This document shows positions 13,612 through 62,429 of a stretch of 64,000 nt of DNA, piece by piece. Below the pieces are notes generated by a model, which did not search any database, was not told the origin of the DNA, and saw only the letters and a program-made list of their open reading frames with translations. Location of the stretch: the NCBI GenBank assembly GCA_023229365.1, contig JALNZK010000002.1, positions 62,343 through 126,342 on the forward strand. Direction: 5' to 3'. Both the position numbers and the translations under genes were made by a program. Position 1 is the first letter of the stretch. Each line of letters starts with the position of its first letter. Origin of the DNA: Pseudomonadota bacterium. Lineage in GTDB: Bacteria; Myxococcota_A; Polyangia; JAAYKL01.

Positions 13612-13632
13612 TCATGTTTTCAAAAATTAAGT

Positions 13633-34849: not shown

Positions 34850-35095
34850 TTAGTGATTTTTGGCACTACTTGAGCTATATTGTTTTTTGATAAAATTCTG
34901 ATGTTCTGCAATATCGACATGAGACATTCCACTACCACCAGAACCAATCGAGCCAGATGAGCCACCAACAACTGGGCATTCTGCGACTAAGCCGCAACGA
35001 TTGCAAAATATGCCATAGTGTCCATCGCTCCCATTCCAATTTACAGGAATCGGGTTGGAACACTGGCATTTTTCTAATGAACTAGAGCTTTTCAT
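34850..35095 (-). CDS. hypothetical Cys-rich small protein
   Basis: 81 aa ORF. Confidence 0.3.
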   Translation of the reverse strand: MKSSSSLEKCQCSNPIPVNWNGSDGHYGIFCNRCGLVAECPVVGGSSGSIGSGGSGMSHVDIAEHQNFIKKQYSSSSAKNH

Positions 35096-35829
35096 TTTCC
35101 TAAACTTTCGCTTTGAAGACCACGAAGTATTTTGGGAATATTACCACTAGCCCCTTCCAACATTTTTTCCCACACGCTCACGTCCTCCAAAGAGAAGATA
35201 TGATAATGGTGAACAATTGGATTTTTCATTATTTGAGGTGAATACCCCAATCGGTTGGCATTAAAACTATAAATAAAAGAATGCCCAATCATAGGCAACT
35301 CATCGGGAAAACCACCACATGCTTTCCAGCAATCTCGGGTGGTAAGCATGCACCATTCAGGCACAAAATCCATTTTCTGCCCCTGTAGGTAATAAGATGC
35401 TTGGTCAATACCAACCAATCCTGAATTACGAGCCTGTGAAACACTCACCAATAAATCTATCCAACCAGGATTGAGAACAACAGTATCACAATGCAAGAAA
35501 ATTAAATATTTAGATGCTTTACTGGCCGCCTCGGCACCTCTATTCGCCGCCGATGACCAGTATAAATTTTTGTCATTTTTGACCAAGGTGACCTCATCCT
35601 TGATTTCTTCCAAAAAGTCCTGACTCTCCTTGCCAGAAGCATTGTCTACAACTACAATTTCATAATTATTGTTATTGCTGCAAATAGAAATAGACTGCAA
35701 ACAAATGTTTAAATGGGCTGGGCGGTCCTTATGAACAATTATGATGGATATTTGCTCGTCTGTGCCATCGTGCAGGTCCAGGGTGAGATCAGCGGGTGGT
35801 CCTTCTAAAGGATTGTGTGGAGAATTCAT
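35092..35829 (-). CDS. glycosyltransferase family 2
   Basis: ISIIIVHKDRPAHLNICLQSI...YEIVVVDNASG is the typical GT2 N-terminal fold. Confidence 0.55.
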   Translation of the reverse strand: MNSPHNPLEGPPADLTLDLHDGTDEQISIIIVHKDRPAHLNICLQSISICSNNNNYEIVVVDNASGKESQDFLEEIKDEVTLVKNDKNLYWSSAANRGAEAASKASKYLIFLHCDTVVLNPGWIDLLVSVSQARNSGLVGIDQASYYLQGQKMDFVPEWCMLTTRDCWKACGGFPDELPMIGHSFIYSFNANRLGYSPQIMKNPIVHHYHIFSLEDVSVWEKMLEGASGNIPKILRGLQSESLGK

Positions 35830-35879: not shown

Positions 35880-36110
35880 ATGATAGTTTATGCAGTCATC
35901 ACAGTAGCCCGACAAATTGAGGGAGAAGTGACCTTTATCAAAACAGAAAAAGCTTTTAAACAAGCCAGCAAAGCTGATGAACTTGTAAAAAAGCTAAATT
36001 CTGATTTTAGAATAGGCGATAAATATAAACCAATGAAATTCAGCAGTGAATTTGGTGATGTAGAATGCTTCTGCACAGCGGGTGGGTTTGAAATCGAGGT
36101 GGAAGAATGA
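35880..36110 (+). CDS. hypothetical protein
   Basis: 76 aa ORF on the plus strand. Confidence 0.3.
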   Translation: MIVYAVITVARQIEGEVTFIKTEKAFKQASKADELVKKLNSDFRIGDKYKPMKFSSEFGDVECFCTAGGFEIEVEE

Positions 36111-36298
36111 AGACATATCAAGAGTGGCAAGACAAAGATTGTTGCCCTGTATGCAGCGAAAGGGCCAATGAACGTTGTCGTTGCATTGGCCCTCATACTG
36201 TAGAAGATTTAGAACGAGGCCACGGATTAAAATGCCCAAATGGACACCGTTGGTCTTATAGCACAGAAGATAAAAAACTCATTATATTAGCCGACTAG
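36107..36298 (+). CDS. zinc-finger small protein
   Basis: 63 aa with CCPVCSE...CRC...H and CPNGH. Confidence 0.3.
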   Translation: MKTYQEWQDKDCCPVCSERANERCRCIGPHTVEDLERGHGLKCPNGHRWSYSTEDKKLIILAD

Positions 36299-36972
36299 GC
36301 TCCGGTGCTACCAAAGCCACCACTTCCTCGTGCGGTTTCTTCCAAAGCGTCAACTACCAGCCAGTCAAAGAGATAAACAGGCTCTATTTCCATTTGAGCA
36401 ATTCGATCACCATGTTTCAAGGTAATTGGGTTGACATTACCTACATTTGTTACAATAACTTGTATACGACCCCTATAATCAGCATCTATACACCCCGGCG
36501 AATTAGTAACAATCAAGCCCTGCGTTGCCAAACCGCTTCTTGCTCTCACATTGGCCTTCCACCCTGGTTTTAGCTCCATAGAGAAGCCACAATCAATTTT
36601 AATGGTGTTTCGATGATTAAGTCTAATTTCACCCGCTGGGATATTGGCAACCAAATCAACGCAAGCTGCACCCTCTGTTTTGTATTGTGGAATGAACATA
36701 GGATCATCTACCACAATTTTAGTCACCACCTTATGCAATGGTGGCTCATAGAAATCTTTAGCTGGGCAGGGGACCGGCAAGGGGCTCGCCATCACCCGTT
36801 TCTTTTCCTTCGGGATATGGCAAGGGTTGGTATTGAACTCCTTCGCTTCCTGCATTACCAATTTCTGGCACTGGTCCTTCATCGATACATTCGACTCCTG
36901 GCAACTCGGCTGCAACTGATCCTTCGTTGGATTCTTGCATTGGCACTGACATTGACATTCTTTCTCGTTCAT
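36295..36972 (-). CDS. dut: dUTP diphosphatase (dUTPase) with N-terminal Cys/Gln-rich extension
   Basis: The C-terminal 150 aa carries the dUTPase motifs AACVDL, RSGLA, GLIVTNSPGCIDADYRG and QMEIEPV. The listed N-terminal 60-80 aa (CQCQCQC...) overlaps the upstream gene, so the true start may be MASPL at about 36792. Confidence 0.8.
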   Translation of the reverse strand: MNEKECQCQCQCKNPTKDQLQPSCQESNVSMKDQCQKLVMQEAKEFNTNPCHIPKEKKRVMASPLPVPCPAKDFYEPPLHKVVTKIVVDDPMFIPQYKTEGAACVDLVANIPAGEIRLNHRNTIKIDCGFSMELKPGWKANVRARSGLATQGLIVTNSPGCIDADYRGRIQVIVTNVGNVNPITLKHGDRIAQMEIEPVYLFDWLVVDALEETARGSGGFGSTGA

Positions 36973-37270
36973 CTTTTTCCTTTCTTAGTTTTTCTCTTTC
37001 CTCTCGAACTTTAATAACTTGCTGATTGATATTGTCAGCAAAATACTTCATAGCATTGTAAGGATATGCCGACGCCTTTTTTATCAATTCTCTCTTTGTG
37101 TATTCGTCGTAATTTTGCTCATTTATCCAATCAGTCAACATCTTGAAAGTAATTCTTTTTTCAAAACGTGGTCTAACTCGGCCCTTATTGTCTTTTCCAC
37201 TCCCTATGGCACCCACCTGAGCATTAAAAGCTTCTGGCATAATTATAGTTCCTTTTCTAAAACAAATCAA
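36758..37270 (-). CDS. hypothetical charged protein
   Basis: 170 aa ORF. It overlaps the annotated dut extension in another frame. Confidence 0.35.
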   Translation of the reverse strand: MICFRKGTIIMPEAFNAQVGAIGSGKDNKGRVRPRFEKRITFKMLTDWINEQNYDEYTKRELIKKASAYPYNAMKYFADNINQQVIKVREEREKLRKEKDERERMSMSVPMQESNEGSVAAELPGVECIDEGPVPEIGNAGSEGVQYQPLPYPEGKETGDGEPLAGPLPS

Positions 37271-37282
37271 TATATAATAGTG

Positions 37283-37756
37283 ATGAAAATATCATTTAGA
37301 CAATTTGTAGAACAGAACGTGCCGGGAACACATAACGACGGTCCTGGTGGGGCATTTAATCTAGGCACAGGTGGGGCATTTATTACAAGCGACCAATCAG
37401 GGAGCGAAACACAAAGCAATTTAACTCCCGTCCTGCCAGCCTATGAGTTAACCACTCAAGTAGTTCCCCACACTAAATTCACTGGTAAAATAGCACAAAT
37501 AAAAGAATACCAAGACCCATATAAAACCCAAGTTCAAATACGAGTGGAACAAAAAATTCAAAGAAAAACTGCTGATGGCAAACTGGTGAATGTTGTCAAA
37601 TCAGAAACTATTTTAATCAACACAGACCAATACCGCACAATGCAAATAATGAATGGTGGCAAAAAACCCAAAGAAGGTGATGTTGCTATAATCACATTAC
37701 TAAGATTGCCCAACGATCAAAAAAGCCAAGCTACTGTGATGGGAATGCGATATTGA
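37283..37756 (+). CDS. hypothetical protein
   Basis: Start reassigned to MKISFRQFVEQN, which is preceded by a TATATAAT box. It shares an N-terminal FRQFVE motif with ORF 33169..33690. Confidence 0.35.
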   Translation: MKISFRQFVEQNVPGTHNDGPGGAFNLGTGGAFITSDQSGSETQSNLTPVLPAYELTTQVVPHTKFTGKIAQIKEYQDPYKTQVQIRVEQKIQRKTADGKLVNVVKSETILINTDQYRTMQIMNGGKKPKEGDVAIITLLRLPNDQKSQATVMGMRY

Positions 37757-38732
37757 TATGTGCTTTTTCCCAACTAGCTAATTTTTGCACTATTTCATCA
37801 TATTCTTTGTCAGTTTGATCTGGGAATTTTGGTTCTAAAACTGCGTACATATCACCATGTTGTCTGGCTATTCCCATTCCACGTAGACGAAGCTTCTTGT
37901 TTGCCACAGTCCTGGGAGGGATCGTCATCTTGACTTCACCAGTAAGTGTAGGGACCACTATATCAGCACCCAAAACCAATTGAGTATATGTTACAGGCAC
38001 ATGGCAAAAAATATGGGGTCCGTGCCGAGTATAAAACGGATGTGATTGCACCGTGACTTTAATGTGCAAATCACCTTTTCTGCCATTTGAATCAACTTCT
38101 CCTGCATGTGGTACTTGCAACACACTTCTGTCTTCAATCCCCGAAGGAATATCAACAGATACGATATTCTCCTCTGTGCCTTTGTATCCGCTTCCTGAGC
38201 AAGCGTCACATTTTGTTTGGGCAACTTTGCCTTGCCCGCCACAAGCGGTGCATGTTGTATGTATAACAAATGGCCCTTGATGTGATGTTTGTCCACCAGA
38301 ACCATGACAAACATCACAGGTTTTCCACTCTTTGACGCCATCAGTACATTCTTTGCACTTAGCACGAACTTTTACAGGAATATCTTTTCTACAACCTAAT
38401 ATAGATTCCTGAAAAGTAAGAACTACCTCGACAACTATAGGATGTTGTCGGGAGCGACCCATTGGCCCTCGAAACATGTTGCCGAAAATGTCGCCACCAA
38501 AGTTGAAACCAAAGGGCGTCCCAATACCCGATCTTTGACGATCATATTGAGCCCTTTTTTGAGGATCGCCCAAGGTTTCAAAAGCTTTGGCAACTTCTTT
38601 AAATTGCTCAACCAATTCTGGCTTATTTGGGTTGATATCTGGGTGTGAAGCTACTGCTTTCTCTCGAAAGGCTTTGTTAATCTCTTCTTCGCTAGCATCT
38701 TTATTGACACCAAGAACATCATAATAATCCAT
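37731..38732 (-). CDS. dnaJ: chaperone DnaJ
   Basis: J-domain with HPD (MDYYDVLGV...ASHPDINP), four CxxCxGxG zinc-finger repeats and a C-terminal domain. Confidence 0.85.
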   Translation of the reverse strand: MDYYDVLGVNKDASEEEINKAFREKAVASHPDINPNKPELVEQFKEVAKAFETLGDPQKRAQYDRQRSGIGTPFGFNFGGDIFGNMFRGPMGRSRQHPIVVEVVLTFQESILGCRKDIPVKVRAKCKECTDGVKEWKTCDVCHGSGGQTSHQGPFVIHTTCTACGGQGKVAQTKCDACSGSGYKGTEENIVSVDIPSGIEDRSVLQVPHAGEVDSNGRKGDLHIKVTVQSHPFYTRHGPHIFCHVPVTYTQLVLGADIVVPTLTGEVKMTIPPRTVANKKLRLRGMGIARQHGDMYAVLEPKFPDQTDKEYDEIVQKLASWEKAHINIAFPSQ

Positions 38733-38740
38733 ACAATCGA

Positions 38741-39061
38741 TTATTCCTCTTCGGGAGCTTGTAACAATACAGCCCTGACGTTATGGGGTTCAATAATACC
38801 CATTTCTCGCACTTGGTCATCACTAACCTTTGGAACAGGATTATAGCTTCCCACCACCATTACACGATCACCCTTGTCATAACCCCATGTTTTGGGATCA
38901 AATGACGGCCCATAATCTAATACTATGGATTGTTGCACTTCATGCCCAGATGTTTTGCCACCGGGCAAAATCATGGTGGTGCCCAACATTTCATTGTCGG
39001 TAAGATGCTCTACAAGAACTTGCGAACCCACAGGTCTACAACCAATAATTTTCGGAACCAT
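38741..39061 (-). CDS. GroES/Gp31-like co-chaperonin
   Basis: 106 aa with a GroES-like pattern (RPVGSQVLVE...MILPGG...GDRVMV). It is adjacent to dnaJ. Confidence 0.5.
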   Translation of the reverse strand: MVPKIIGCRPVGSQVLVEHLTDNEMLGTTMILPGGKTSGHEVQQSIVLDYGPSFDPKTWGYDKGDRVMVVGSYNPVPKVSDDQVREMGIIEPHNVRAVLLQAPEEE

Positions 39062-39074
39062 TTGTTTTTCCTTT

Positions 39075-39437
39075 TTAGTTTGAGTCTTCTGGTGGTGGTG
39101 GTATATTTATGTCATTTGCCGTCCACATATCGAATGTAGACCAATTACTTGTACCAACCCACCCTTGTCCATTAACAAATAAAGAAGGCGATGTATAAGC
39201 CAATGGTTCTTTTTTTTCTTTGTATTTTGACAACAATTCTTGCACCACGGCTTCTTTCAAGTCACAATAACCCATCCATCCCCTGTCAAAAGCTGTTTCT
39301 AAAAGCTCTTTCAATTCTTCTGTTGTGATCTGGACCATAACTTTACCTATAATAGTATAAATTTCAAAATATCGAAATAAAATAACATTTTCCATCTCTT
39401 TCGCCCAATAAAACTGGGCAAATAGATTTGTCAGCAA
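39075..39437 (-). CDS. hypothetical protein
   Basis: 120 aa ORF. Confidence 0.35.
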   Translation of the reverse strand: MLTNLFAQFYWAKEMENVILFRYFEIYTIIGKVMVQITTEELKELLETAFDRGWMGYCDLKEAVVQELLSKYKEKKEPLAYTSPSLFVNGQGWVGTSNWSTFDMWTANDINIPPPPEDSN

Positions 39438-40302
39438 TGGATTCCGATAATTTTCCCGGCGTATCTATCTTAGGAGAGACGACAATATAATAATCAAAAA
39501 TAGGATTACCGGCTGCCTCTGGGAAGTTTTCTGTTATGCCAATAGCATTTTTGATTCTATCTGGTAAGTCTAAAAGATGGGCGGGATAAGCAGCAGGCAC
39601 ATAATTTGAAGATATAGAACACCCGTGCATTTTCCCCAAAATTAAAGCAATAAGCGTCATGGTAATTCTGCGAAATCCATAGTGTGTGTCACCAAAGGAT
39701 TCCTGAAAAACATCCAATGATTTTTTAATCTCTGCACACATGGACTCACAGCCCAAACGCTTGAAATGCTCGGCCTGTTTCTCAAATTTTTCTATTTCTG
39801 CCTTGTAAGCCATGTTGTGCCTCACATATAGGTCAAAATTAAGAGGGATATTATCGCTCCATTTCCTATAGGCATTAGTCAAATCAATGGCTTGCGTGCT
39901 TTTCACCAGTCGTGCAGCTTCTTTTTCTCCTCTTTGCAAAAGCCGGGCACACATCTTCATCAGTCTTATTTTGTCCTCTATATCCTTGATTTCCGGCTTG
40001 AGAACCCTAAAAAGCTCTTGATGCAAAAGAACATAGCCCCTTTTCCTAGCAAAGGTGGCTGCCTCTATTGCTTGTGTAATTTTGGCGACATGACAATAGC
40101 CAAGCACATCTTGAAGATCAGGATGTAACAGATTCAAGACGGGGCACAAGCCGTGTAAAAAAGAGCCAAGGTCACGCCCCAAAACTGCTTTTACATCTTC
40201 TACGTCTGTATCGCCAATAAATCTAAAGAATTCAGAATAAATTTTGCGAACTTCGCCCGTCTGAGCGAGAGCAGCATCTATTTCTTCTCGAATATCATTC
40301 AT
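39364..40302 (-). CDS. hypothetical protein
   Basis: 312 aa ORF. Confidence 0.4.
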   Translation of the reverse strand: MNDIREEIDAALAQTGEVRKIYSEFFRFIGDTDVEDVKAVLGRDLGSFLHGLCPVLNLLHPDLQDVLGYCHVAKITQAIEAATFARKRGYVLLHQELFRVLKPEIKDIEDKIRLMKMCARLLQRGEKEAARLVKSTQAIDLTNAYRKWSDNIPLNFDLYVRHNMAYKAEIEKFEKQAEHFKRLGCESMCAEIKKSLDVFQESFGDTHYGFRRITMTLIALILGKMHGCSISSNYVPAAYPAHLLDLPDRIKNAIGITENFPEAAGNPIFDYYIVVSPKIDTPGKLSESIADKSICPVLLGERDGKCYFISIF

Positions 40303-40303
40303 T

Positions 40304-40825
40304 TTATTTCTTCATGGGTTCAATAATACAACTCACCCCTTTTCCCTCTAATCGGGGAGTGCTCAGGGGTTTCCCACAAGAAACCAAAGAATCAATCATT
40401 TTCTGCATAAGGCTAAAACCCAGGTCTTTGTGAGCATTTTCTGCACCTTTGAATCTTACCATAAGTTGAACCCTATTTCCAGCCTCAAGGAATCTTTGTG
40501 CAGAATTTATCTTCACATCAAGATCATGAGTGGCTATAGAAGGCCGCAAACGTATTTCTTTAAGTTGCTGAGCCTTTGTTTGCGACTTACTCTTCTTTTC
40601 TTTAATGCTTTGCTCATAGCGAAATTTGCCATAATCCATTATTTTGCAAACTGGTGGTCGAGCATTTGGAGCCACTTCTACAAGGTCCAAACCTTCTCTC
40701 ACCGCAATTTCTAATGCCTGAGAAGTAGGCATTGTGCCCAATTTTTCTTCGCCTAAGATAACCATTACTGGCGAGAATCTGATTTGTCGATTAACACGAC
40801 AGAACTTTTGCTGATCTTTTTGCAT
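40304..40825 (-). CDS. infC: translation initiation factor IF-3
   Basis: Readily alignable with bacterial IF3: VMVILGEEKLG / LDLVEVAPNARPPVCKIMDYGKFRYE / KEIRLRPSIATHDLDVK / MVRFKGAENAH. Confidence 0.85.
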   Translation of the reverse strand: MQKDQQKFCRVNRQIRFSPVMVILGEEKLGTMPTSQALEIAVREGLDLVEVAPNARPPVCKIMDYGKFRYEQSIKEKKSKSQTKAQQLKEIRLRPSIATHDLDVKINSAQRFLEAGNRVQLMVRFKGAENAHKDLGFSLMQKMIDSLVSCGKPLSTPRLEGKGVSCIIEPMKK

Positions 40826-40828
40826 AAA

Positions 40829-42433
40829 CTATTTGCTTGTCTTTATACCCTTTCTCATTCTTTGTAAAACAGGCGACACATCATCACTATCAATTTTTAC
40901 ATTGATAACACACACAGACTCATTCACAAGGGCTGCACTCATAACAGAGTGTAGCGTTTGTTCATCTTCTACTAAAGCTCCCATACCTCCAGAAATTACA
41001 TCCACCATTTTTTCATAGTCCCATTCATGAATATCATAAAAAGGACCAGTAATTGAATTGCTTGCATAACCACCATTGTTTAACACACATACTATGGGGT
41101 TCAAACGACGAGCAACAATTGTGCTTAGTTCACTACAAGACATTTGAAAAGCCGCATCTCCCAAAATAACTATTGGACGCATCTTGGGAACGGCGGTTTG
41201 TAATCCTAGAGCGGCTGGTAGAGCGAAACCCATGCTTGGATAATATGCTGTTGCAAAGAATCCATGTTGATGGGTAATTAAATCACTTGCACCGAATAAT
41301 GAATCCCCCACATCGGATACAATAATAGAATTGGCATTCAAAATACTATTTATTTTTTCAAAAAACCTCGCCACAGTAATTTTAACACCACTGCGTGGTC
41401 GGAACTCTTTGTTGATTGGGGCTGCAATGACTGTGGCTAAGCCCTCCCGGCGAATTGAGGCTTTAAATAAAGCCCGGATAAAATCTTCAAAACCAACCTT
41501 ATCTGCATAGAAATGATTTTTAATACACAGTTCTGAAGAACACGTAACTGTGTGTTTATTAGCGGGCAAATTCTGGCAAGAAGATACGCCTAAAACCAAC
41601 AAACAATCAGATGTATCAATTGTTTCCTGAACTTTTGGATTGCTTCCTGCTCCTGCATAAACCCCAATCGCCAAGGGATGACTTTCATCAATTAGAGATT
41701 TGCTTAAAAGCGTGGTAACTACCGGAATGTTATATTTCTCGGCAAACTTCAAAAGAAGGGCACCCAAGCCATGACGATCTAATTGAATTCCGCCCAAAAT
41801 AACGGGCTTTTTAGCTTCATTCAACCAGTCTACCACTTCTGCCAACGCTTCTTCTAAAATCTCTTTATTACTTTCGGGAGCAGAGGGTGTGCCCTGTTTG
41901 TAAACATCATATACCAAAGTCTTATCAGCAATATCTTCTGCCAATTCAATGAATACTGGTTGTTTGTGATATTTTAATTTTTCCAACACAGAATCTATTT
42001 GATAGCCAGCAGTGCTAACATTATTCAATGTGGTGGAGGCACAGGTCAAATATTGAAACACTTTATTGTGATAGCTCTCCTGGCATTGGCCCTGTGATTT
42101 AGCCCCAGAAATAACAATAACAGGAGAATGCTCTGCTTTTGCACAAGCTATGGCATTTGCTATTTTCAAAGCTGACATTTGTGATACACAAACACATCCA
42201 ACACCACGAATACGAGCATAAGCATCGGCGGCAAACGCCGCATTTATTTCTTGTGTAGTATGAACTACTTCAACGTCTGATTTGGACAATTTTTTGAAAA
42301 AATTAGTAATATGGTCTCCAGGCAAGCCAAACACATGTTTTACGCCCGCATTTTCCATTCTTTCTACTAAAAAGTCTGACACACTCGACATGAAATATTC
42401 CTTACAACAAGATTTCTGAAGTTGGACTATCAA
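40829..42433 (-). CDS. thiamine-pyrophosphate-dependent enzyme (acetolactate synthase / pyruvate decarboxylase family)
   Basis: N-terminal TPP-pyrimidine-binding domain (GVKHVFGLPGDHITNFF) and the C-terminal GDAAFQM TPP-binding motif. Confidence 0.65.
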   Translation of the reverse strand: MIVQLQKSCCKEYFMSSVSDFLVERMENAGVKHVFGLPGDHITNFFKKLSKSDVEVVHTTQEINAAFAADAYARIRGVGCVCVSQMSALKIANAIACAKAEHSPVIVISGAKSQGQCQESYHNKVFQYLTCASTTLNNVSTAGYQIDSVLEKLKYHKQPVFIELAEDIADKTLVYDVYKQGTPSAPESNKEILEEALAEVVDWLNEAKKPVILGGIQLDRHGLGALLLKFAEKYNIPVVTTLLSKSLIDESHPLAIGVYAGAGSNPKVQETIDTSDCLLVLGVSSCQNLPANKHTVTCSSELCIKNHFYADKVGFEDFIRALFKASIRREGLATVIAAPINKEFRPRSGVKITVARFFEKINSILNANSIIVSDVGDSLFGASDLITHQHGFFATAYYPSMGFALPAALGLQTAVPKMRPIVILGDAAFQMSCSELSTIVARRLNPIVCVLNNGGYASNSITGPFYDIHEWDYEKMVDVISGGMGALVEDEQTLHSVMSAALVNESVCVINVKIDSDDVSPVLQRMRKGIKTSK

Positions 42434-43190
42434 TAATGCCTATCACAAAGCCTTCCGAAGATGTTGGAAATCGTCTTTCCCACTCTATCCCCTCGCCAGC
42501 AACACAACCAAAATCTGTTGGTGTATAGGTGCTTGGAGTAAAACTGGGTATTATCTCTGGTGCAAAAGTCAACTGAACTGAAGGTTCCGGCTCGGCCATT
42601 TTCAATAATCTGAATTCTAACAAAAAACACCCAGGAACACAAGTGTCGAGTGCGGAGAAATTATAAACCAAGTAAGAATCTATAAGTTGATCTGTGCTTG
42701 TGCTACCATCTACATTAAGAATGTCATCGTAAACTAATTCTATTTCACCGGGTGAATTCAAAATACGAAACGCTTTTAAAGTTTGTCCTTTTTTATACGA
42801 TGCTGGCAAAGTACCATGATAACCTCTCTGCACACGTATTAATTTGTTGGCTTCATCAAATCCCGTTACCAGCATTTGTTCGGGCAATCTTGTGCGATCT
42901 ACCACTATGATATCATTCTGCATAATTTGTTGAAAACCAACATCGTCAGCCAGCCTAAAATACTCATCTGTTTCGCTAATGCTGGTCTTTAATTTAACAT
43001 TACTCCACATGCTGGCTTCTACCACCAGTAACTCACTGGTAAGGTCCATAGGACCATCACAGTCAGAAACCGAGACTTTGAAGGCAGGTCGAGTATCATG
43101 ACGCTTGATGCAGAAATCAGAACTGCAAGTAGTGCCGCAATTGTTTTGGCTGTAGCCAGGAACGCCGAGTTGTGTGTTGCAAACTGTCAT
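42402..43190 (-). CDS. hypothetical protein
   Basis: 262 aa ORF. Confidence 0.4.
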   Translation of the reverse strand: MTVCNTQLGVPGYSQNNCGTTCSSDFCIKRHDTRPAFKVSVSDCDGPMDLTSELLVVEASMWSNVKLKTSISETDEYFRLADDVGFQQIMQNDIIVVDRTRLPEQMLVTGFDEANKLIRVQRGYHGTLPASYKKGQTLKAFRILNSPGEIELVYDDILNVDGSTSTDQLIDSYLVYNFSALDTCVPGCFLLEFRLLKMAEPEPSVQLTFAPEIIPSFTPSTYTPTDFGCVAGEGIEWERRFPTSSEGFVIGIIDSPTSEILL

Positions 43191-43215
43191 ATCCTATATA
43201 TGTTCACAAAAAACA

Positions 43216-43734
43216 TTAAAAAATTCCTATTCTATCCATGTCTGCAACCGCATCTTTCACACAGTTTAAGTTTCCAGAAAATTCTGTAAGCTGAATCCCG
43301 GCTTTCTTGGCAATTTCCTCTATTTTAGCTAATGCTTCAGCATTAACAGAAGAACCAGCATCTGCCCTGAAATTGAAATATATTATTTTGTCAATTCCAG
43401 CCGCTATAATTTCCAGCATACATCTGGGACAGGGAGGGGCCGTAATATAAATAGTTGCTTCTTTTAATGAACCAAAAGAGTGGTTAATAGCATTGATTTC
43501 CGAATGCACAATCATGTCGTATTTTTCTGGGCGGCTCCAATCCACTTCGTCATCTGCAATGCTTTGTGGTGGACCATTGTATCCCCAGCCCTTAGGACGA
43601 TTTTCATCACCCACAATTACTGATGCTACTTGTGTGTGTGGGTCTTTAGAAAACAATTGAGCAATACAAAATGCCAGCCCCATATAACGCTCGTCTCGGG
43701 TAGGTACTTCTCGTGGTGGTGTTCTTTTTTTCAT
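43216..43734 (-). CDS. dCMP deaminase (cytidine/deoxycytidylate deaminase zinc-binding)
   Basis: HSEINAIN (H-x-E) and PCPRC (PCxxC) zinc ligands. Confidence 0.75.
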   Translation of the reverse strand: MKKRTPPREVPTRDERYMGLAFCIAQLFSKDPHTQVASVIVGDENRPKGWGYNGPPQSIADDEVDWSRPEKYDMIVHSEINAINHSFGSLKEATIYITAPPCPRCMLEIIAAGIDKIIYFNFRADAGSSVNAEALAKIEEIAKKAGIQLTEFSGNLNCVKDAVADMDRIGIF

Positions 43735-44207
43735 TCTATTAATTGCACATATTGAAAAATGTGATCTTTGTAAACAGCTTTAAAAGCTTTTAATTTGTTG
43801 CTGGCATCTGGGCTTAAATTGCGTATCAACAATGCTTCCGGCAAAGGAACATACATTTGCCAAAAGTTATTATCTTTCATTCTCAACAAACAAGCGAGCG
43901 GCACATAAGACAGTGATAGAAAATCAACACATCTGACATAATAGCAATCATTTACATTATCGTAAACATACCCGCCCAAAGGGGAGCCACATTCGCATCT
44001 TATTTTTTGCAAAGCATTTCTTCCCAATTCCTTATGCAAAGCCAACACGATTACAAAAGTACGATCTTTAGTACGAGTAAGTTGCAGATTTGTCTTGATG
44101 GCTCTTGTGTCTTTTTCCGACAATAAAGCAGGAACATTTGTCATATTGTCTAGTGATTGTTCATGTGCAATATCTGATAAATCACTGTAGTTCATAATTT
44201 TCTCCAC
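43731..44207 (-). CDS. hypothetical protein
   Basis: 158 aa ORF. Confidence 0.35.
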   Translation of the reverse strand: MEKIMNYSDLSDIAHEQSLDNMTNVPALLSEKDTRAIKTNLQLTRTKDRTFVIVLALHKELGRNALQKIRCECGSPLGGYVYDNVNDCYYVRCVDFLSLSYVPLACLLRMKDNNFWQMYVPLPEALLIRNLSPDASNKLKAFKAVYKDHIFQYVQLIE

Positions 44208-44500
44208 TTATATTTGCCATTTTCTATATCAGCTAATGCATCTAAATCAAAATTTTTCTTGGCCACAGCGTGAGCGGCTTCAATTTTTTCCATTTTAACA
44301 CGCATTGCAAACATCCACCGCACACTGCACTTATGCCCTGTGTGCTCAGTAAAACGAAAATAATCGCCATAGAGAAGATAATATGATAAAAAACACTGCT
44401 GAACGGAGGTTCTGAAATACTTGAGCAAATAAAGTTTTTCTTTTGGAATAGCCACTTCTTTGTTGGCAATAAATTTTAGCTCAGCATCTGAATCTAACAT
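44192..44500 (-). CDS. hypothetical protein
   Basis: 102 aa ORF. Confidence 0.3.
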   Translation of the reverse strand: MLDSDAELKFIANKEVAIPKEKLYLLKYFRTSVQQCFLSYYLLYGDYFRFTEHTGHKCSVRWMFAMRVKMEKIEAAHAVAKKNFDLDALADIENGKYKWRKL

Positions 44501-44925
44501 ATTTGTATTCTATCAGAAGAGATATCATCTCTGCAAATAAATGTTTTTTGTTTTCCATTTGGATAAAATTTTGGGTGCAAATAAACAGTATTCCAATCAT
44601 ATTCTGGCTCTATATCCAACCCCGAACAATTTACCTTCAACAAAATACAATGCGAATGCACATGTATATCCATTGTGTCAACTATGTATTGCGGATCATC
44701 AGTTAAAAAAATGGGCTGCATTCCATAACGCTCTATATAATACCTTACATTTCCTAGTCCTTTGTGTCCTGTATTTATTCGTAATCCCTGCACAAGAATT
44801 GATGTCAGGTGTATTTTTTCAGCAAAGTGATATAAAATCATTATATCACTACCCCATAACACAGTTCCAGGTTTACCAATAAAATACCAGCCCTGAAACA
44901 TTTGGGAATGCCTAACTGACTGCAT
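44494..44925 (-). CDS. hypothetical protein
   Basis: 143 aa ORF. Confidence 0.35.
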   Translation of the reverse strand: MQSVRHSQMFQGWYFIGKPGTVLWGSDIMILYHFAEKIHLTSILVQGLRINTGHKGLGNVRYYIERYGMQPIFLTDDPQYIVDTMDIHVHSHCILLKVNCSGLDIEPEYDWNTVYLHPKFYPNGKQKTFICRDDISSDRIQIC

Positions 44926-45218
44926 CTATTCAACACACCCAACACCAGTTGAACACCTCCTTTTATGCCTTCCCTTTCAATCAATTCATAGGCTAAAGGC
45001 ACGCCTTCTTCAATAGAGGTGTTTAATGCTCGATCAATACAGGCAGCGGATTTGAAAATATTGGGACTAATTCTGCCGCCACAATGAAGTTGCTTATTGG
45101 CAAAAAAATCTTGCAAGTATCCTACTGCCAATTCCTCCACATTTTCCAAAAAATAATCATCAACGAACTCGACCCCTTGCTCTTCTGTTTCTTCGTAAAA
45201 AAGAGTAGACACAGACAT
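44841..45218 (-). CDS. hypothetical protein
   Basis: 125 aa ORF. Confidence 0.35.
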   Translation of the reverse strand: MSVSTLFYEETEEQGVEFVDDYFLENVEELAVGYLQDFFANKQLHCGGRISPNIFKSAACIDRALNTSIEEGVPLAYELIEREGIKGGVQLVLGVLNRCSQLGIPKCFRAGILLVNLELCYGVVI

Positions 45219-45283
45219 TTTATGCTCCTGTAAAGGGTACTGGTCTATTATTTAAATAATTATGACATCATAAAAAAAATGTG

Positions 45284-45601
45284 TCAAGGGGATTTGTCGT
45301 ACCCTTGCTCTATATTCTTGAATATCGGATAGCCAGGGCAATTATCCCCCAAAGCTACTCCCTGAACATGGGGGTCAATACCTGTTATTTTGCAGTTTTC
45401 TAAAAATTCGTTTACCGTCTCATCCATGCGTTTTTTTGCGACTTTTTTGTGTTTTATGCAATACCACTGCCATGCCAATGGGTCTTCTTGTAAATATCGG
45501 CATTGTCGATGATCTCCCACAAACATTAAACAAATATCTTGCAACTGTTTTTGACTCAACATAATGTTTTCCTTACATCCAAATGTGTTGTTCTTCTCCA
45601 A
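45284..45601 (-). CDS. hypothetical protein
   Basis: 105 aa ORF. Confidence 0.35.
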   Translation of the reverse strand: MEKNNTFGCKENIMLSQKQLQDICLMFVGDHRQCRYLQEDPLAWQWYCIKHKKVAKKRMDETVNEFLENCKITGIDPHVQGVALGDNCPGYPIFKNIEQGYDKSP

Positions 45602-46106
45602 TGTCAGATATCAGCACTCCCTCACCGTGTGAAATTTCATGCTGATGGGCGACACACAAAATACCATCCTCTTCAGCAGACAATACCATATCTACCGCAT
45701 CTATTCTGATTTTTCCGTCCACATACAGTTGTTGGCCTTCCACTCGGATTTTTTTAAACCGATCTACCTTAAACCAACGAGACGATCCATCAGGATTTGT
45801 GAGAGATAAGCACCCCTCAAAAGATGATACCTTTTCATCTTCTATGGGCGTATATTTGCAGTTTAAATAGTAGCCAAATGGCATCTCTGCCGATTTTCTG
45901 ACAACGTACATATTCCAAGGCAACCCCACCTGTACCGCATGAAGACCAATTCCTTTGCGTAATTTGCACAAAATTTCTAATGCAGCAAATATCTTATACA
46001 ATTCCACGGGGGATTTATCAGCAGAGCCAGCTTTGGGAATTTGGTCAACTGGAATTATTTTTGGGATAGTTTGGTCGTTATCGCATCGCTCTTTTGATAC
46101 AGCCAT
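45573..46106 (-). CDS. def: peptide deformylase
   Basis: GIGLHAVQVG (motif 1), EGCLS (motif 2) and QHEISHGEG (HExxH, motif 3). Confidence 0.8.
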   Translation of the reverse strand: MAVSKERCDNDQTIPKIIPVDQIPKAGSADKSPVELYKIFAALEILCKLRKGIGLHAVQVGLPWNMYVVRKSAEMPFGYYLNCKYTPIEDEKVSSFEGCLSLTNPDGSSRWFKVDRFKKIRVEGQQLYVDGKIRIDAVDMVLSAEEDGILCVAHQHEISHGEGVLISDIGEEQHIWM

Positions 46107-46315
46107 TTACGTAATACCTCGGGTTGTCCCCTAAGTTCGTTAGGAATTTTCAGGATTACAGGAATTTCTTCTCCATCCACTACCACAAGGTCCAATCCCT
46201 TGGTAATCAGTTTTCTGAGCAATTCAGATTTGTTCCATCCCATTTTTTTCGCAGATACATCTAGTAATTCTTGCATCTCTAATGGAAGCGATATACTCAT
46301 TACATTCTGTGCCAT
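46055..46315 (-). CDS. hypothetical protein
   Basis: 86 aa ORF. Confidence 0.3.
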   Translation of the reverse strand: MAQNVMSISLPLEMQELLDVSAKKMGWNKSELLRKLITKGLDLVVVDGEEIPVILKIPNELRGQPEVLRKWLYQKSDAITTKLSQK

Positions 46316-46325
46316 ATTTTACACC

Positions 46326-46550
46326 TTATACTGTTTTTGGTCTATTTGCTTTTATGCGTTTCATTTGGGCCGCTTTTTCTTTTCGCCTACGGCGTTCTCC
46401 CTTGCTTTCAAAATACTGTTTTGATTTCCACAAGGTCATCACACCAGAATCCGTTGTTTTTTTTCTAAACTTACCCAACAAATTCCTAAAGTTTTCTTCG
46501 GGCGACTTTCCATGTTCCACCCGCAAAATCGCTCTACAATTCACTGCCAT
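46326..46550 (-). CDS. rpsU: 30S ribosomal protein S21
   Basis: 74 aa basic protein with the S21-like pattern (FRNLLGKFRKK...YFESKGERRRRKEKAAQMKR). A GAGGAG Shine-Dalgarno lies upstream. Confidence 0.65.
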   Translation of the reverse strand: MAVNCRAILRVEHGKSPEENFRNLLGKFRKKTTDSGVMTLWKSKQYFESKGERRRRKEKAAQMKRIKANRPKTV

Positions 46551-47704
46551 GTTGTACTCCTCAAGTCTCTATTTACTTTTAAAAATTTTGCACCCATTTT
46601 ATTGGTTCGCATTTGTCGTACATTATCATAGAGTACGATCTCTTCTCTTTCTACTGGCGATGGCCACTTTTCTCGATCTAATTCCTTCAAAAATGACCCC
46701 ACAGTAGATAGTATAACATCAAAAAAGTTATTTTTCCATACATCTACGCTATTTTCTGGTACAATATTAGGAAAAGAAAATATATATCGCCTTGGAAGTG
46801 TTTTATCCGCCAATAAATCATCTATCTCATACTCTTTTTGCCCATTATACCTTAAACGCTCATCTAATGCCACAAACGGGGCTCTTGCTGCCATAGACCA
46901 ACGAGAAATACCAGAAAACACATCTAACACACATCCTACTGTTCTCATGACACCCATTAATTTTACCACATCCTTCTCAGTTGTATACATGCAACTGGGT
47001 AGTTCTGTGGAAAGATCATGAGTTGTAAAATTTTGATAAATAATGGGAGTAATACCACTGTCAACCAAGCTTTCTGCTAATTTTACCCAAAAACTCTTCG
47101 GACTCTTTATGTAAGTCAAAGACCCCTGCCGCCAGGACCGTATCTGTTCTACAGGATATAATAAAACTTTTGCACCACTTGCAATCAATTGCCTATTAAA
47201 TTCGGCCCCTAAAATACCAGATGAAGGAACGCTCATCAAATATCTGCGAACATGTTTGAACTTATCCCAAAATTCCTTCTTGATTCCATTGTCATAAACT
47301 GACAAAAATACTTCTGGCCCGGCGACATCTTCCAACCAATAATTCAATTCCCTTCTAAAATGCACACTTAACTCAGATTCGTTGTCAAAACCATTGGCAG
47401 ACAAAGCAAACTTTTTCAAAACACTTTCTTCACGTATCGTCCACACTTCATTCACATAAGGAAAAAGATGCTCATAACCGGGCCAAGTGCAGACAATGAA
47501 ATATTTAGAAGTTTTTACTTGTTCACGATAACGCTTTAACAACATAGAAGAAAGTATAAAACTGGATCGTATGTCCCCAAAAAATAAAACAGTACAAATA
47601 TTGGACAAATTGCCAGGGATGTCCTTCTCCACCCATCGGGTGCGAGTAAAACCACATTTATCTGCGGCTCGGGTTAGTATGGATGGGACATCAACATCTA
47701 TCAT
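46541..47704 (-). CDS. hypothetical protein
   Basis: 387 aa ORF. Confidence 0.4.
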   Translation of the reverse strand: MIDVDVPSILTRAADKCGFTRTRWVEKDIPGNLSNICTVLFFGDIRSSFILSSMLLKRYREQVKTSKYFIVCTWPGYEHLFPYVNEVWTIREESVLKKFALSANGFDNESELSVHFRRELNYWLEDVAGPEVFLSVYDNGIKKEFWDKFKHVRRYLMSVPSSGILGAEFNRQLIASGAKVLLYPVEQIRSWRQGSLTYIKSPKSFWVKLAESLVDSGITPIIYQNFTTHDLSTELPSCMYTTEKDVVKLMGVMRTVGCVLDVFSGISRWSMAARAPFVALDERLRYNGQKEYEIDDLLADKTLPRRYIFSFPNIVPENSVDVWKNNFFDVILSTVGSFLKELDREKWPSPVEREEIVLYDNVRQMRTNKMGAKFLKVNRDLRSTTWQ

Positions 47705-48846
47705 GTGTAAGCTCCAATTCTTTTATCATTCTCTTTTTTCCATTGTTGTGCCACATGTTCCGTCTCTAGTAATCCAAAAATATCTTCATAGTTTCCAATA
47801 TTCATTTCTAAAATAGCCCTCTTAGTCAAATCGATAAATGCCTCATTGTCATTATACGCATTCCAGAAATGAGAAACTATAAGTTTTCTTGGTCCGAAAT
47901 CACATAAATTTCTTCTATAACCTTCTTGTCCTATTCCCCAAATTTGATCTGGACTTTCTGCTAAAATATAAGGCACTCCCATCATTCCAGCCAAACGTGT
48001 AGAAGCTGTCCAAAACTGCACTGTGAATTCGCATTGTTTCACAATCGCAAATGTTAGTTCTAAATCTCTGGCTTCTATCTTGCGAGACATGTCTATGATT
48101 CCATCAACAGGACAGGCTTGTGTACTCTGTTTTTCGCCCAACCAAATTGGATTATAACCCATGTCACGCAATAATTTAACCAATTTAACGTAAAATTCAG
48201 GCTGTAAATTCCTGCCATAGGTGGCTCTGCCTCTAGCGAAAACAGCCACACTTTTTGGCTTTAAATATTTTTTTGCTTCCTCCATCTTATCAGGCGAAGG
48301 AGGTGGCAAAGGAATTGCCAATCGTTTCCAAAAATGTATATCATTAAATAAAGATTTGACAAAAGTTGCGTTTTTACAATTAGGACATTCTTCGGTGTCT
48401 TCACGCCAATAATGATTGCATTTTTTACAAGAATTGACTATCGCACAAGCCGCCAAATGCTCAGGTGGGCAAAAATTACCCAATTTTGCCACTTCTTTAT
48501 GCAAAAGGGCAATGTTTTTTGAGGAATTGCTAAATGCATTAGAGTAATCTCTAAGCCACTGATGTTCCTCTTTTAGTTCCCAAAACTCATCTGCCAAGTG
48601 TCGATACAAATAAGAACGACCGTACCATCCTAAGACAATTACATACAAACCGCCATAATTCTGTAATACTTTTGGGATGCTATAAAGCACAGATAATGTT
48701 TCACACCCAAACTCAAAAAGCGTAGAAATAATTAGAATTTTGCGAATATCTTTGGGCTTAGGCCGAGCATTAAATTTATGGACATTAAAACTAATATCCT
48801 CCATTGTTTCTTCTTTGGCTTTGGGGGGCGACTTGATTAACCTCAT
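47701..48846 (-). CDS. hypothetical protein
   Basis: 381 aa ORF. Confidence 0.4.
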   Translation of the reverse strand: MRLIKSPPKAKEETMEDISFNVHKFNARPKPKDIRKILIISTLFEFGCETLSVLYSIPKVLQNYGGLYVIVLGWYGRSYLYRHLADEFWELKEEHQWLRDYSNAFSNSSKNIALLHKEVAKLGNFCPPEHLAACAIVNSCKKCNHYWREDTEECPNCKNATFVKSLFNDIHFWKRLAIPLPPPSPDKMEEAKKYLKPKSVAVFARGRATYGRNLQPEFYVKLVKLLRDMGYNPIWLGEKQSTQACPVDGIIDMSRKIEARDLELTFAIVKQCEFTVQFWTASTRLAGMMGVPYILAESPDQIWGIGQEGYRRNLCDFGPRKLIVSHFWNAYNDNEAFIDLTKRAILEMNIGNYEDIFGLLETEHVAQQWKKENDKRIGAYT

Positions 48847-49082: not shown

Positions 49083-50396
49083 CTAACCCCCGCCACCAGC
49101 TACCGCACCATAGTTGGGGAAAGAATAACTGGCGACTGCGGTTTGATCTAATCTATTTGCACCAATTTGAATAGTATTAGCCACCTCCAGCACATCCATT
49201 GATGTAGAAACATTACAAACACTCAATTCTGAATTTCTGATTATTGCTCTGGCAAATAGAGCAGATATGCTGGTGCCTGCGGTGTTAATGAACGGTCGAT
49301 AAAACCCAGTTAATACAACATTACTTACATTTACATTGCCCGATGTTGAATTATCATCAATGATAATGGGTCGATTGTTTGGTGTTGCGTCAAAATCAGT
49401 AGATGCTGATAATTTGCCAACTCTAATATTTCTATCTAAATTATATACTCGACCAGTATTATAATACCTGCCTGTGTAGGCTTCCGCAATTTGAATGTCA
49501 GTATTTGCACTATTTGAACTATTAGCGACCAATGAGACAATTGTAGCTGGTCCCAATCCTGCGTCGGCAAAACTATCGTAAATATTTTGTGAATATGTCC
49601 CGTTCTTATGAATTAACAACTCCTGCCCATTGGCCCATGTTGTTGTCACATCTCCCACTACTGTAAATGTCAATCCTAATGATGGTTGCCACCCATTGAT
49701 ACAAGTGCCCACTCCAGTAGAATTGCCGCCAGGGTTGAACGTAGAATTCAATATGGCACTGGCTGAAAGCCATCGATATGGCAAAATACCTCCTACTTCA
49801 GCCGACAATCTCCAACGACTCACATCTGCATCGTACCAAATAAAATATTGAGCCCCGCCAACAAGGCCATCTCTTTGATAAACTGTATGATCGTTCCATC
49901 CAGATGGATAATCAGAGGTTGGGTAGTAATATCCAGTCACATCGGGGCTTAATGTGCCAGTCACGGTACAAAAATCCGCTATACTTGTGCATAAAATATT
50001 GCTATACAATAACGGATCGCCATATAAGGTCAATTTTCCACCATCGGCAATTGTTATACCGTTCGCTCCATCCGTAGTTGTATCCCACAATATTTCGGCT
50101 GTATATGCTTTATCTAACACAGAACCTACCGTACCAATTCGCAATTCCCCAGTGGCACCAATCGCAATAGTATAATTACCCATTGTAAGCTTGGTTGATG
50201 CAGTCGTAGAAAAACTTAAAATCCCATTAACTACAATGCCTTTACTTGGTGTTGTGCTGTTGAGATCACAAGTCACAGTATCAGTAGACGCTATAACAAC
50301 ATCATCTGTGCCTATGGTTGGTGCAACACCACCCGACCATGTTGCACCAACCGACCATGTTCCACCACCAGTGCCATTGGATGTTTTTGTTGCCAT
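49083..50396 (-). CDS. Gly/Thr/Ser-rich repeat protein, probable fibre/structural protein
   Basis: 437 aa of low-complexity beta-rich sequence (GTGGGTWSVGATWSGGVAPTIGTDDVVIASTD...). Confidence 0.4.
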   Translation of the reverse strand: MATKTSNGTGGGTWSVGATWSGGVAPTIGTDDVVIASTDTVTCDLNSTTPSKGIVVNGILSFSTTASTKLTMGNYTIAIGATGELRIGTVGSVLDKAYTAEILWDTTTDGANGITIADGGKLTLYGDPLLYSNILCTSIADFCTVTGTLSPDVTGYYYPTSDYPSGWNDHTVYQRDGLVGGAQYFIWYDADVSRWRLSAEVGGILPYRWLSASAILNSTFNPGGNSTGVGTCINGWQPSLGLTFTVVGDVTTTWANGQELLIHKNGTYSQNIYDSFADAGLGPATIVSLVANSSNSANTDIQIAEAYTGRYYNTGRVYNLDRNIRVGKLSASTDFDATPNNRPIIIDDNSTSGNVNVSNVVLTGFYRPFINTAGTSISALFARAIIRNSELSVCNVSTSMDVLEVANTIQIGANRLDQTAVASYSFPNYGAVAGGGG

Positions 50397-53917: not shown

Positions 53918-53929
53918 CTTATCCCTTTA

Positions 53930-54133
53930 TCAAGCTACCATATTGCTACAACAACCACTACAACCACAAACGCTACTAAAATCTGCTAATACAGTCTGAC
54001 AAGCGTGGGGAGCATCTGTTCGAACAAATACTTCACACTCATCAAAGGAAAACAATCCATTAAACAAAATACGAAACAACTTGGGATACCATTTTCGTTG
54101 TTGAGTGCAGGATTTTTCACTTGTTGCTAACAT
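53930..54133 (-). CDS. Cys-rich small peptide, candidate RiPP precursor
   Basis: 67 aa with a strong AAGGAGG Shine-Dalgarno. Its stop lies 13 nt upstream of the radical SAM gene. The C-terminus is cysteine-dense (SSVCGCSGCCSNMVA). Confidence 0.45.
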   Translation of the reverse strand: MLATSEKSCTQQRKWYPKLFRILFNGLFSFDECEVFVRTDAPHACQTVLADFSSVCGCSGCCSNMVA

Positions 54134-54162
54134 TGTACCTCCTTTAGGACAAGCATATATAG

Positions 54163-56781: not shown

Positions 56782-56844
56782 AATTCTACTATCACTATAT
56801 CAGTTTGCTTGCATCAAATCAACAGATAATCACTAATTTAAATT

Positions 56845-57987: not shown

Positions 57988-57996
57988 GGAAAAAAA

Positions 57997-58170
57997 ATGA
58001 TGACAACACTAACAGATGCAGAAAAAATCACTTTTGAGTGTCCAGATGCAGAAAAACTACAACAATTGCTGGACGAGTGCTTGTGTATGGAAATTAATGC
58101 GGGCACCAATTCAAATTCTACTGCTGGCTATGTTTGTGCTTGCCCCGTATATACAATTTCAATAACCTAA
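57997..58170 (+). CDS. Cys-rich small peptide (57 aa), candidate RiPP precursor; absent from the supplied ORF track
   Basis: An AAGGA Shine-Dalgarno precedes ATGATG, 9 nt after the radical SAM stop. The peptide is MMTTLTDAEKITFECPDAEKLQQLLDECLCMEINAGTNSNSTAGYVCACPVYTISIT. Its stop overlaps the ATG of the next gene (TAATG). Confidence 0.4.
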   Translation: MMTTLTDAEKITFECPDAEKLQQLLDECLCMEINAGTNSNSTAGYVCACPVYTISIT

Positions 58171-59892: not shown

Positions 59893-59894
59893 AA

Positions 59895-61623: not shown

Positions 61624-61633
61624 AATTACACCA

Positions 61634-62428: not shown

Positions 62429-62429
62429 A

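Follow-up and report, generated by a model that had tools for sequence, protein, structure and literature searches.

To what kind of genome do genes for a translation initiation factor, a ribosomal protein, a peptide deformylase (PDF) and two co-chaperones belong when they lie close together on a contig filed under a bacterium, and what would they do there? The question is raised by a 64,000-nucleotide stretch of contig JALNZK010000002.1 (assembly GCA_023229365.1, positions 62,343 to 126,342, here called the window), in which the genes for IF3 (infC), a homologue of ribosomal protein bS21 (rpsU), PDF (def), DnaJ and a GroES-like protein are all located on the minus strand and all within 8.8 kb. 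A preliminary description of the window had interpreted this group as a translation and proteostasis module of a huge phage. Our analysis supports the view, to which we give a probability of about 0.78, that the genome is that of a huge tailed phage of at least 340 kb in the lineage of phage LR756511.1, which has a gp23-type capsid protein, and that these auxiliary genes are co-directional and functional and use the machinery of the host.

The gene calls themselves were confirmed. The genes infC (40304-40825, 173 aa), def (45573-46106, 177 aa) and rpsU (46326-46550, 74 aa) are co-directional, with 6.25 kb from infC to rpsU, and they stand near a pair of genes encoding a divergent GroES/Cpn10-like co-chaperonin (38741-39061, 106 aa) and a type I DnaJ (Hsp40; 37731-38732, 333 aa). 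Four of the five genes fall inside the segment 38741-46550 to which they had been assigned, while DnaJ lies 9 nt outside it. Profile searches placed IF3 (TIGR00168), S21 (PF01165) and PDF (PF01327) above their respective cut-offs. The five named genes are not contiguous, with 13 further open reading frames (ORFs) located between DnaJ and S21.

Proteins identical to the S21, IF3 and DnaJ of the window are held in GenBank as MCK9458339.1, MCK9458329.1 and MCK9458325.1 and their genes lie on a 340,072-bp contig, almost certainly a huge phage that was mis-binned. These identities, together with collinearity to LR756511.1 and to viral contigs in IMG/VR, bear out the huge-phage interpretation. LR756511.1 (SR-VP_PHAGE_COMPLETE_CIR-CU-CL_42_23) is a curated circular phage genome of 595,163 bp from vernal pool mud, with a profile given as 82% unknown and with the host not assigned (Al-Shayeb et al. 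2020, PMC7162821). Its major head protein matches phrog_138 (5e-81), its portal phrog_213 (1e-72) and its large terminase phrog_2 (1e-41); the terminase and capsid genes also appear in the tree files of PMC7162821. The capsid protein of LR756511.1 is gp23-type, as in T4, and belongs to a family found on at least 388 IMG/VR contigs, with 78-92% identity among the 80 matches listed.

Homologues in LR756511.1 were found for 26 of the 96 ORFs in the window, and these are mostly collinear, 24-57 kb of the window corresponding to 293-338 kb of the phage. Over ~45 kb the shared order runs from a family 2 glycosyltransferase (GT2), dUTPase, DnaJ and the GroES-like gene through orf312, IF3, a thiamine pyrophosphate (TPP) enzyme, orf262 and dCMP deaminase to PDF, a ribbon-helix-helix (RHH) protein, S21, a GT9-like pair and then a DnaE polymerase. 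Both sequences have a GC content of ~40-42% and both carry large tRNA sets. On viral contigs of 136, 189 and 259 kb in IMG/VR the block from orf381 to DnaJ is likewise collinear, at 30-57% amino acid identity. A megablast search of positions 36000-48000 against 50,697 phage records returned no match, and amino acid identity to LR756511.1 is 23-55%, which places the window in a separate genus-level lineage. LR756511.1 further differs in encoding IF1 (180009-180218, 68.6% identical to E. coli IF1) and a transfer-messenger RNA (tmRNA; 341280-341632, tag ANPEFAMAA), neither of which was found in the window; it also encodes an L7/L12-like fragment, a ClpP-like gene and 63 tRNAs. The gene beside its IF1 has a homologue at 20659-21027 of the window.

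If the window were part of a Pseudomonadota chromosome, or of the genome of a reduced symbiont, these would be ordinary housekeeping genes. All five do have cellular homologues, and the identical proteins at NCBI are named 'MAG: ... [Proteobacteria bacterium]', MAG standing for metagenome-assembled genome. The surroundings of the genes speak differently. As a control, infC was examined at 80 loci from GTDB species representatives, 75 of which were testable for L20. L20 lies downstream of infC at 43 of the 75, within ~250-670 nt at 42 and at ~1.7 kb in one, whereas L20 was found downstream of infC at none of the loci of the phage clade. Conversely, a PDF, S21, DnaJ or GroES homologue is near infC in all five members of that clade, and none was found within 4 kb of infC at any of the 80 cellular loci, with E. 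coli queries included as controls. Clustering of the five genes is thus beyond chance. None of the cellular operon contexts thrS-infC-rpmI-rplT, def-fmt, dnaK-dnaJ or groES-groEL is seen at the locus: infC is not followed by rpmI-rplT (L35 and L20), and no fmt, dnaK or groEL lies nearby. Loss of the infC-rpmI-rplT context, which is common in bacteria but not universal, argues for non-cellular regulation and not against the identity of IF3. Most neighbouring genes are without a Pfam match, the tRNAs are clustered and duplicated, and 45 kb are collinear with a phage bearing a gp23-type capsid, a portal and a terminase. The nearest relatives are viral contigs from IMG/VR, and identity to cellular IF3 reaches 49% at most. 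A cellular origin consequently appears to us the least credible of the explanations considered.

Conservation within the clade bears on a further explanation, in which the genes are recently captured host genes that have no part in infection and are carried in a region tolerant of insertions. The proteins of the window were aligned with those of LR756511.1 and of three other relatives (L002, L004 and L016), at 31-52% identity. Across all five genomes the PDF motifs, the HPD motif and zinc-finger cysteines of DnaJ, the S21 core and the core of the GroES-like protein are maintained. Motifs and gene order kept at such identities point to long-term purifying selection, not recent capture, and the genes are far from any cellular homologue. 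Passive cargo would account for the mixture of unrelated functions in the block, for the insertion of 14 kb in LR756511.1 and for the dispersal of such genes in other jumbo phages. Weighed against the same order and intact catalytic motifs in five genomes, we regard it as very improbable. As to the term module, the conserved clustering stands, but the 13 interleaved ORFs and the 14-kb split in LR756511.1 do not describe a dedicated operon.

IF3 matches TIGR00168 at 170.6 bits (cut-off 60) as well as phrog_9787. Pfam places IF3_N at residues 11-78 (97.4 bits) and IF3_C at residues 87-170 (88.2 bits), and residues 9-173 align with solved chains of bacterial IF3, for example 8jsg_A, the best chain at E 1.7e-39. 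The gene starts with ATG 3 nt past the stop of the TPP-enzyme gene (TAG-ttt-ATG) and has no Shine-Dalgarno motif. Its adjacency to the TPP-enzyme gene is kept in L002, L016 and LR756511.1, and the ATG start is found in all five clade members. Among the cellular infC loci, 37 of 80 have no usable in-frame ATG, GTG or TTG before the conserved core, so that AUU, AUA or AUC must serve as the start there. With its ATG start the phage infC should escape the autorepression of IF3 that depends on the start codon, and may instead be placed for coupling to the upstream TPP gene.

The closest named IF3 homologues are mixed, coming from a mis-binned 'Thorarchaeota' MAG, Burkholderiales, Planctomycetota, Rhodobacterales and Clostridia. 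Given these homologues and a neighbour-joining tree of IF3 that is unresolved at depth, no host was called from this protein. Of note, the homologue filed under 'Thorarchaeota archaeon' is 54% identical, and archaea are not known to have IF3. The preliminary description had counted S21 and initiation factors among the hallmarks of very large phages. Both S21 and an initiation factor are indeed carried here, but neither IF3 nor S21 is exclusive to such phages: tblastn matches of IF3 among the phage records include Vibrio and Pseudomonas phages of 41-52 kb.

Outside this clade, PDF lies within 4 kb of infC in 4 of 16 other viral IF3 lineages, versus none of the 80 cellular loci (Fisher p = 5e-4). 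The viral loci with this linkage are L006, L018, L022, L023 and L026 of IMG/VR, where PDF is often ~140-650 nt downstream. This suggests that the linkage of IF3 and PDF has been repeatedly selected in phages.

The PDF of the window matches PF01327 at 49.9 bits (cut-off 22.8), phrog_2890 and structures in the PDB. Its motifs GIGLHAVQ, EGCLS and HEISH are intact, including the Cys, His and His metal ligands and the catalytic Glu, with a His in place of the first Ala in motif 1. In the five genomes the motifs are kept as G(I/V)GLxAxQ, EGCLS and QHEIxH, and an insertion between motifs 2 and 3 is conserved. Only 17 residues follow HExxH (~16 in clade members), compared with 32 in E. coli Def. The PDB matches include the PDF of cyanophage S-SSM7 (3uwa), at only ~29 bits. 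The PDFs of S-SSM7 and of Vp16 are reportedly truncated at the C-terminus, as the groups of Frank (in 2013) and Grzela (in 2017) are said to have described. Judged by its sequence, the protein fits this truncated phage subtype rather than cellular Def. It has in common with the PDFs of S-SSM7 (3uwa/3uwb) and Vibrio phage Vp16 a type-1B-like core, the three motifs and the lack of the long C-terminal helix of E. coli Def, and it differs from them in the His of GIGLHAVQ and in the clade insertion.

S21 scores 39.0 bits against PF01165 (cut-off 27) and 40.2 against TIGR00030 (cut-off 28.95), and its positional homologues in L002 (31.3 bits) and LR756511.1 (27.6 bits) also exceed the Pfam cut-off. 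The homologue in LR756511.1 is located at ~332160-332420 (~27160-27420 of L121, minus strand), in the syntenic position. No match was obtained by tblastn in the 50,697 phage records. The scaffold name of LR756511.1 is absent from the rpS21 tree file of PMC7162821, and the lineage's S21 probably went unnoticed in that published tree. Compared with E. coli S21 the protein has ~5 additional N-terminal residues, and a long basic N-terminal extension is absent. The start of its gene, preceded at 6 nt by a GAGGAG Shine-Dalgarno motif, overlaps the stop of orf387 by 10 nt (ATGGCAGTGA).

Directly upstream of S21 are two distant paralogues, orf387 and orf381 (46541-48846, minus strand). Sequence-profile searches with orf381 gave no Pfam family and no PDB sequence match, whereas structure comparison gave a GT9-type (heptosyltransferase-like) GT-B fold with a four-Cys ribbon insert. 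Structural neighbours with the GT9 fold include the protein glycosyltransferases TibC and EarP, and on the basis of the modelled fold the pair could be imagined to modify a component of translation. A GT2-family glycosyltransferase (35092-35829) and a G8-domain protein (49083-50396), both on the minus strand, border the block as well, and with the GT9-fold pair they make up a carbohydrate theme, which competes with a translational reading of the GT9-like genes.

DnaJ has a J domain (Pfam, 84.4 bits), a short G/F region, a zinc finger and C-terminal substrate-binding domains (DnaJ_C, 114.2 bits). The HPD motif is at residues 31-33; of the four CxxC motifs the first repeat is degenerate (CKECTDG), and the CXXCXGXG profile reaches 30.8 bits against a cut-off of 32.7. 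The protein matches phrog_14336 at 2.5e-70 and aligns over its full length with the solved DnaJ 6jzb. The GroES-like gene ends 8 nt upstream of dnaJ, and this adjacency is kept in L002, L004, L016 and LR756511.1.

The GroES-like ORF gave no Pfam, NCBIfam or PHROG match at E<=0.01, and its assignment rests on the predicted fold, not on sequence. Nineteen metagenomic homologues were collected, two of which carry a precomputed PF00166 match; 15 of the 21 family members match Cpn10 at E<=1 (down to 4.8e-6), and the family profile finds Hsp10 in the PDB at only E 0.027. An AlphaFold2 model built from the family alignment has a pLDDT (predicted local distance difference test) of 87.3, dipping to 67 at residues 31-40. 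The top 30 PDB hits of this model in Foldseek are all GroES, Cpn10 or T4 gp31 (best E 4e-4, TM 0.55-0.60). The residues of low confidence coincide with a putative mobile loop bearing the hydrophobic triplet M-I-L, in which TTMILPG aligns with GGIMLPE of human Hsp10.

We searched LR756511.1 and the window with its flanks (~7.7 kb upstream and ~9 kb downstream) by tblastn, using E. coli queries, and obtained no match for GroEL, DnaK, GrpE, Fmt or EF-Tu. GroEL and DnaK are conserved enough for such a miss to be meaningful. With no GroEL or DnaK found in these sequences, DnaJ and the GroES-like protein probably act with the DnaK and GroEL of the host.

Several observations weigh against a huge phage with functional auxiliary genes. 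The 340,072-bp contig is filed as a 'Proteobacteria/Pseudomonadota bacterium' MAG, and scans with PHROG and Pfam found no capsid, portal or terminase in the window or its ~17 kb of flanks. The phage identity of this genome therefore rests on synteny with its relatives, and the verdict of huge rests on the 340-kb contig size and that synteny, not on gene content. In the IF3 tree there is a vague pull to Planctomycetota and related phyla. PDF falls below the NCBIfam equivalog cut-offs (TIGR00079, 43.4 vs 103.95), as does DnaJ (TIGR02349, 278 bits vs 377.2), and the GroES-like protein reaches 13.7 bits against Cpn10 (PF00166), under the cut-off of 21.1. The 14-kb insertion in LR756511.1, holding ABC-transporter-like and other genes, lies between the GroES-like gene and orf312. 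With the five genes interleaved here, split in that phage and dispersed in the jumbo phage AP-J-162, the case for their functional coupling is weakened.

What the five proteins do in infection we infer from their identities, folds, motifs, synteny and phage origin. On the 30S subunit the site of action of both IF3 and bS21 is the platform, close to the 3' terminus of 16S rRNA, and there they would keep or bias initiation toward phage mRNAs. PDF would take the formyl group off newly made phage polypeptides, and DnaJ would hand client proteins over to the DnaK of the host. For the GroES-like protein the expected role is that of a lid on host GroEL, like that of T4 gp31 in the folding of gp23; with a gp23-type capsid in the lineage, the gp31-GroEL-gp23 precedent is the natural model. 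The five products are expected to plug into host machinery and not to form a self-contained system. That phage IF3 and S21 intercept initiation has been proposed by Al-Shayeb et al. (PMC7162821).

The same proteins could be read as instruments of host shut-off, with phage IF3 and S21 acting as poisons or competitors that suppress host translation and let phage mRNAs, most of them started with AUG, pass. Excess IF3 would block 70S formation and reject non-AUG or leaderless starts, and a divergent S21 would displace host bS21. In keeping with this, the phage infC starts with AUG and, in contrast to infC in many cellular genomes, has no start codon that would visibly serve autoregulation. S21 is highly divergent, at 27-40 bits to the S21 profiles and without its like among the phage records searched. 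ATG begins 54 of 62 ORF calls in the window (~87%), a crude estimate based on the first start and ordinary for bacteria. Yet IF3 aligns with functional bacterial IF3 over both domains and the linker, with no evident loss of features, and PDF, the tRNAs and RtcB, plus the IF1 and tmRNA of the relative, point to sustained translation. We consider shut-off unlikely, and prefer the use of host machinery for phage translation and folding.

The tRNA island invoked by the preliminary description is real. It extends over 8269-13703 on the minus strand, with 15 tRNAs predicted by ARAGORN, 13 of them at the Rfam gathering score. Isoacceptors are duplicated, with four for Lys, three for Gln and two each for His, Trp and Met, besides Cys and Ile. 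One tRNA-Met(CAU), at 13537-13611 on the minus strand (59.2 bits to the Rfam tRNA model), is initiator-like. It has a U1-C72 mismatch, A11:U24 and A73, and its acceptor 5' strand and D-arm are nearly identical to those of E. coli tRNAfMet. Its anticodon stem contains two of the three canonical G:C pairs, the first being replaced by A29:U41. A similar tRNA in LR756511.1 (277952-278024, minus strand) has an A1-A72 mismatch and U29:A41. The variant initiator tRNA may matter because IF3 proofreads exactly this anticodon stem. One might go further and propose that an IF3 free of autoregulation, a divergent bS21, a phage-owned initiator-like tRNA and PDF are co-adapted for the assembly of phage-biased 30S complexes, to which the IF3-PDF linkage and the S21-coupled GT9-fold genes could also belong. 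We put this forward as a tentative and rather doubtful extension.

Comparable gene sets are known from other phages. Huge phages carry IF1, IF3, S21 and PDF (PMC7162821), pelagimyophages carry S21 and PDF (PMC7029224), and the E. coli jumbo phage Sharanji encodes an IF-3, the role of which is stated as unknown (PMC11895373). The Sinorhizobium jumbo phage AP-J-162 and, by similarity, Agrobacterium phage Atu_ph07 encode GroES, DnaJ, deformylase, S21, IF-3 and L7/L12 (PMC11242549). These two thus have the full five-gene repertoire in one genome, along with a T4-like capsid and baseplate. The genes of these phages are for the most part scattered (gp154/gp155 for deformylase and DnaJ, gp204, gp532 and gp547), whereas here they lie within 8.8 kb. 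The tblastn search with IF3 also returned Agrobacterium phage records.

The single auxiliary S21 accompanied by PDF in a T4-related phage resembles the bS21 of pelagiphage HTVC008M and of pelagimyophages (Mizuno et al. 2019; PMC7029224). It differs in lacking the long basic N-terminal extension of many huge-phage S21s (PMC7162821), in having no detectable similarity to S21 genes in the phage records searched, and in being coupled to two GT9-fold genes. With T4 gp31 and RB49 CocO the GroES-like protein shares a small GroES fold, a flexible loop with a hydrophobic triplet and a gp23-type capsid lineage without a phage GroEL. It is, however, only ~18% identical to gp31, and its length and weak profile matches bring it closer to Cpn10 of cells; the adjacent DnaJ gene is no feature of T4, and partnering with GroEL is predicted here from the fold. 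Every element, and the combination of five genes, has a precedent. What the window adds is their tight clustering, the conserved order in one lineage and the mis-filing in GenBank.

The block belongs to an array of minus-strand ORFs that runs without a break over 36-50 kb of the window. Its junctions are tight, mostly overlaps or gaps of <=25 nt, and the block is probably transcribed as one or two long transcripts. Its best match to a sigma-70-like promoter (TTGACA-17-TG-CATAAT, 11/12) is at 45259-45287 on the minus strand, at the upstream edge of the sole gap of more than 60 nt (45219-45283) and 4 nt inside the end of orf105. Read from the sequence, it is a possible internal promoter and serves as a lead only. 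There was no enrichment of promoter-like sites (44 vs 45.1 in shuffles) or of terminator-like sites (13 vs 12.1). At -11 to -8 before the starts the purine/G signal is moderate, and GGA occurs in 25 of 62 upstream regions of window ORFs. There is no sign of the Bacteroidota-type translation without Shine-Dalgarno motifs that has been proposed for S21 in some huge phages.

The interleaved ORFs, all on the minus strand, comprise orf312 and orf120 (both downstream of IF3), the TPP enzyme, orf262, dCMP deaminase, five small ORFs and the RHH protein. The product of orf312 (39364-40302) has no family match; its gene begins 1 nt past the stop of IF3 (TAA-a-ATG), and homologues of 22-27% identity occupy the same position in L004, L016 and LR756511.1. 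The TPP enzyme (40829-42391, ~520 aa) belongs to the 2-keto-acid decarboxylase/acetolactate synthase superfamily by its Pfam domains TPP_enzyme_N, _M and _C. Its best NCBIfam match, indolepyruvate/phenylpyruvate decarboxylase, scores 219.8 bits against a cut-off of 554.5, and so no equivalog is assigned. Such an enzyme is an unusual auxiliary gene in a phage. The product of orf262 (42402-43190) is strongly conserved across the relatives (47-55% identity), with a weak PHROG match to a tail protein alone (E 0.0039). It is followed by dCMP deaminase (43216-43734; PF00383, 60.6 bits; phrog_174, 1.6e-31) and by four small ORFs, orf158, orf102, orf143 and orf125 (43731-45218), three of which have homologues in relatives. 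A small conserved protein downstream of PDF (orf105/92, 45284-45562) is recognised from gene calls and synteny. Between S21 and PDF lies a gene for a CopG-family RHH DNA-binding protein (46055-46315; PF01402, 23.3 bits vs 20.5), which shares 52 nt with the start of the PDF gene and occurs in every relative. It may act as a local transcriptional regulator.

Elsewhere the window and its flanks contain RtcB, an NAD-dependent ligase, a DnaE-type polymerase, HNH/endonuclease VII, PhoH, dUTPase and radical S-adenosylmethionine (SAM) genes. Most of the genes have no Pfam match on record, and they are mostly on one strand. Two genes, at 1619-2275 (plus strand) and 17135-17839 (minus strand), resemble the sigma-70 family in regions 2 and 4, and such factors may give the phage a means of redirecting the RNA polymerase of its host. 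Genes of the radical-SAM type cluster at 52586-63242, with members at 52586-53917, at 56845-57987 and just past the end of the window; beside them are a class I methyltransferase (60556-61623) and several other ORFs. The cluster may form a pathway for the modification of nucleic acids or peptides. An ORF of 1157 aa (28840-32313, minus strand) has no Pfam or PHROG match, no tblastn match in the phage records and no homologue in LR756511.1. For the protein encoded at 63246-63938, at the edge of the window, no deposited record was found.

Housekeeping proteins of a phage deposited under a Pseudomonadota MAG can contaminate bacterial reference sets and marker-gene analyses, and the divergence of S21 in this lineage suffices for it to escape detection. 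Three leads bear on how phages bias initiation: the AUG start of infC, the variant initiator tRNA and the recurrent linkage of IF3 to PDF. The locus stands as a documented case, with its order conserved in at least five divergent genomes, of huge phages bringing along initiation factors, a ribosomal protein, a processing enzyme and co-chaperones.

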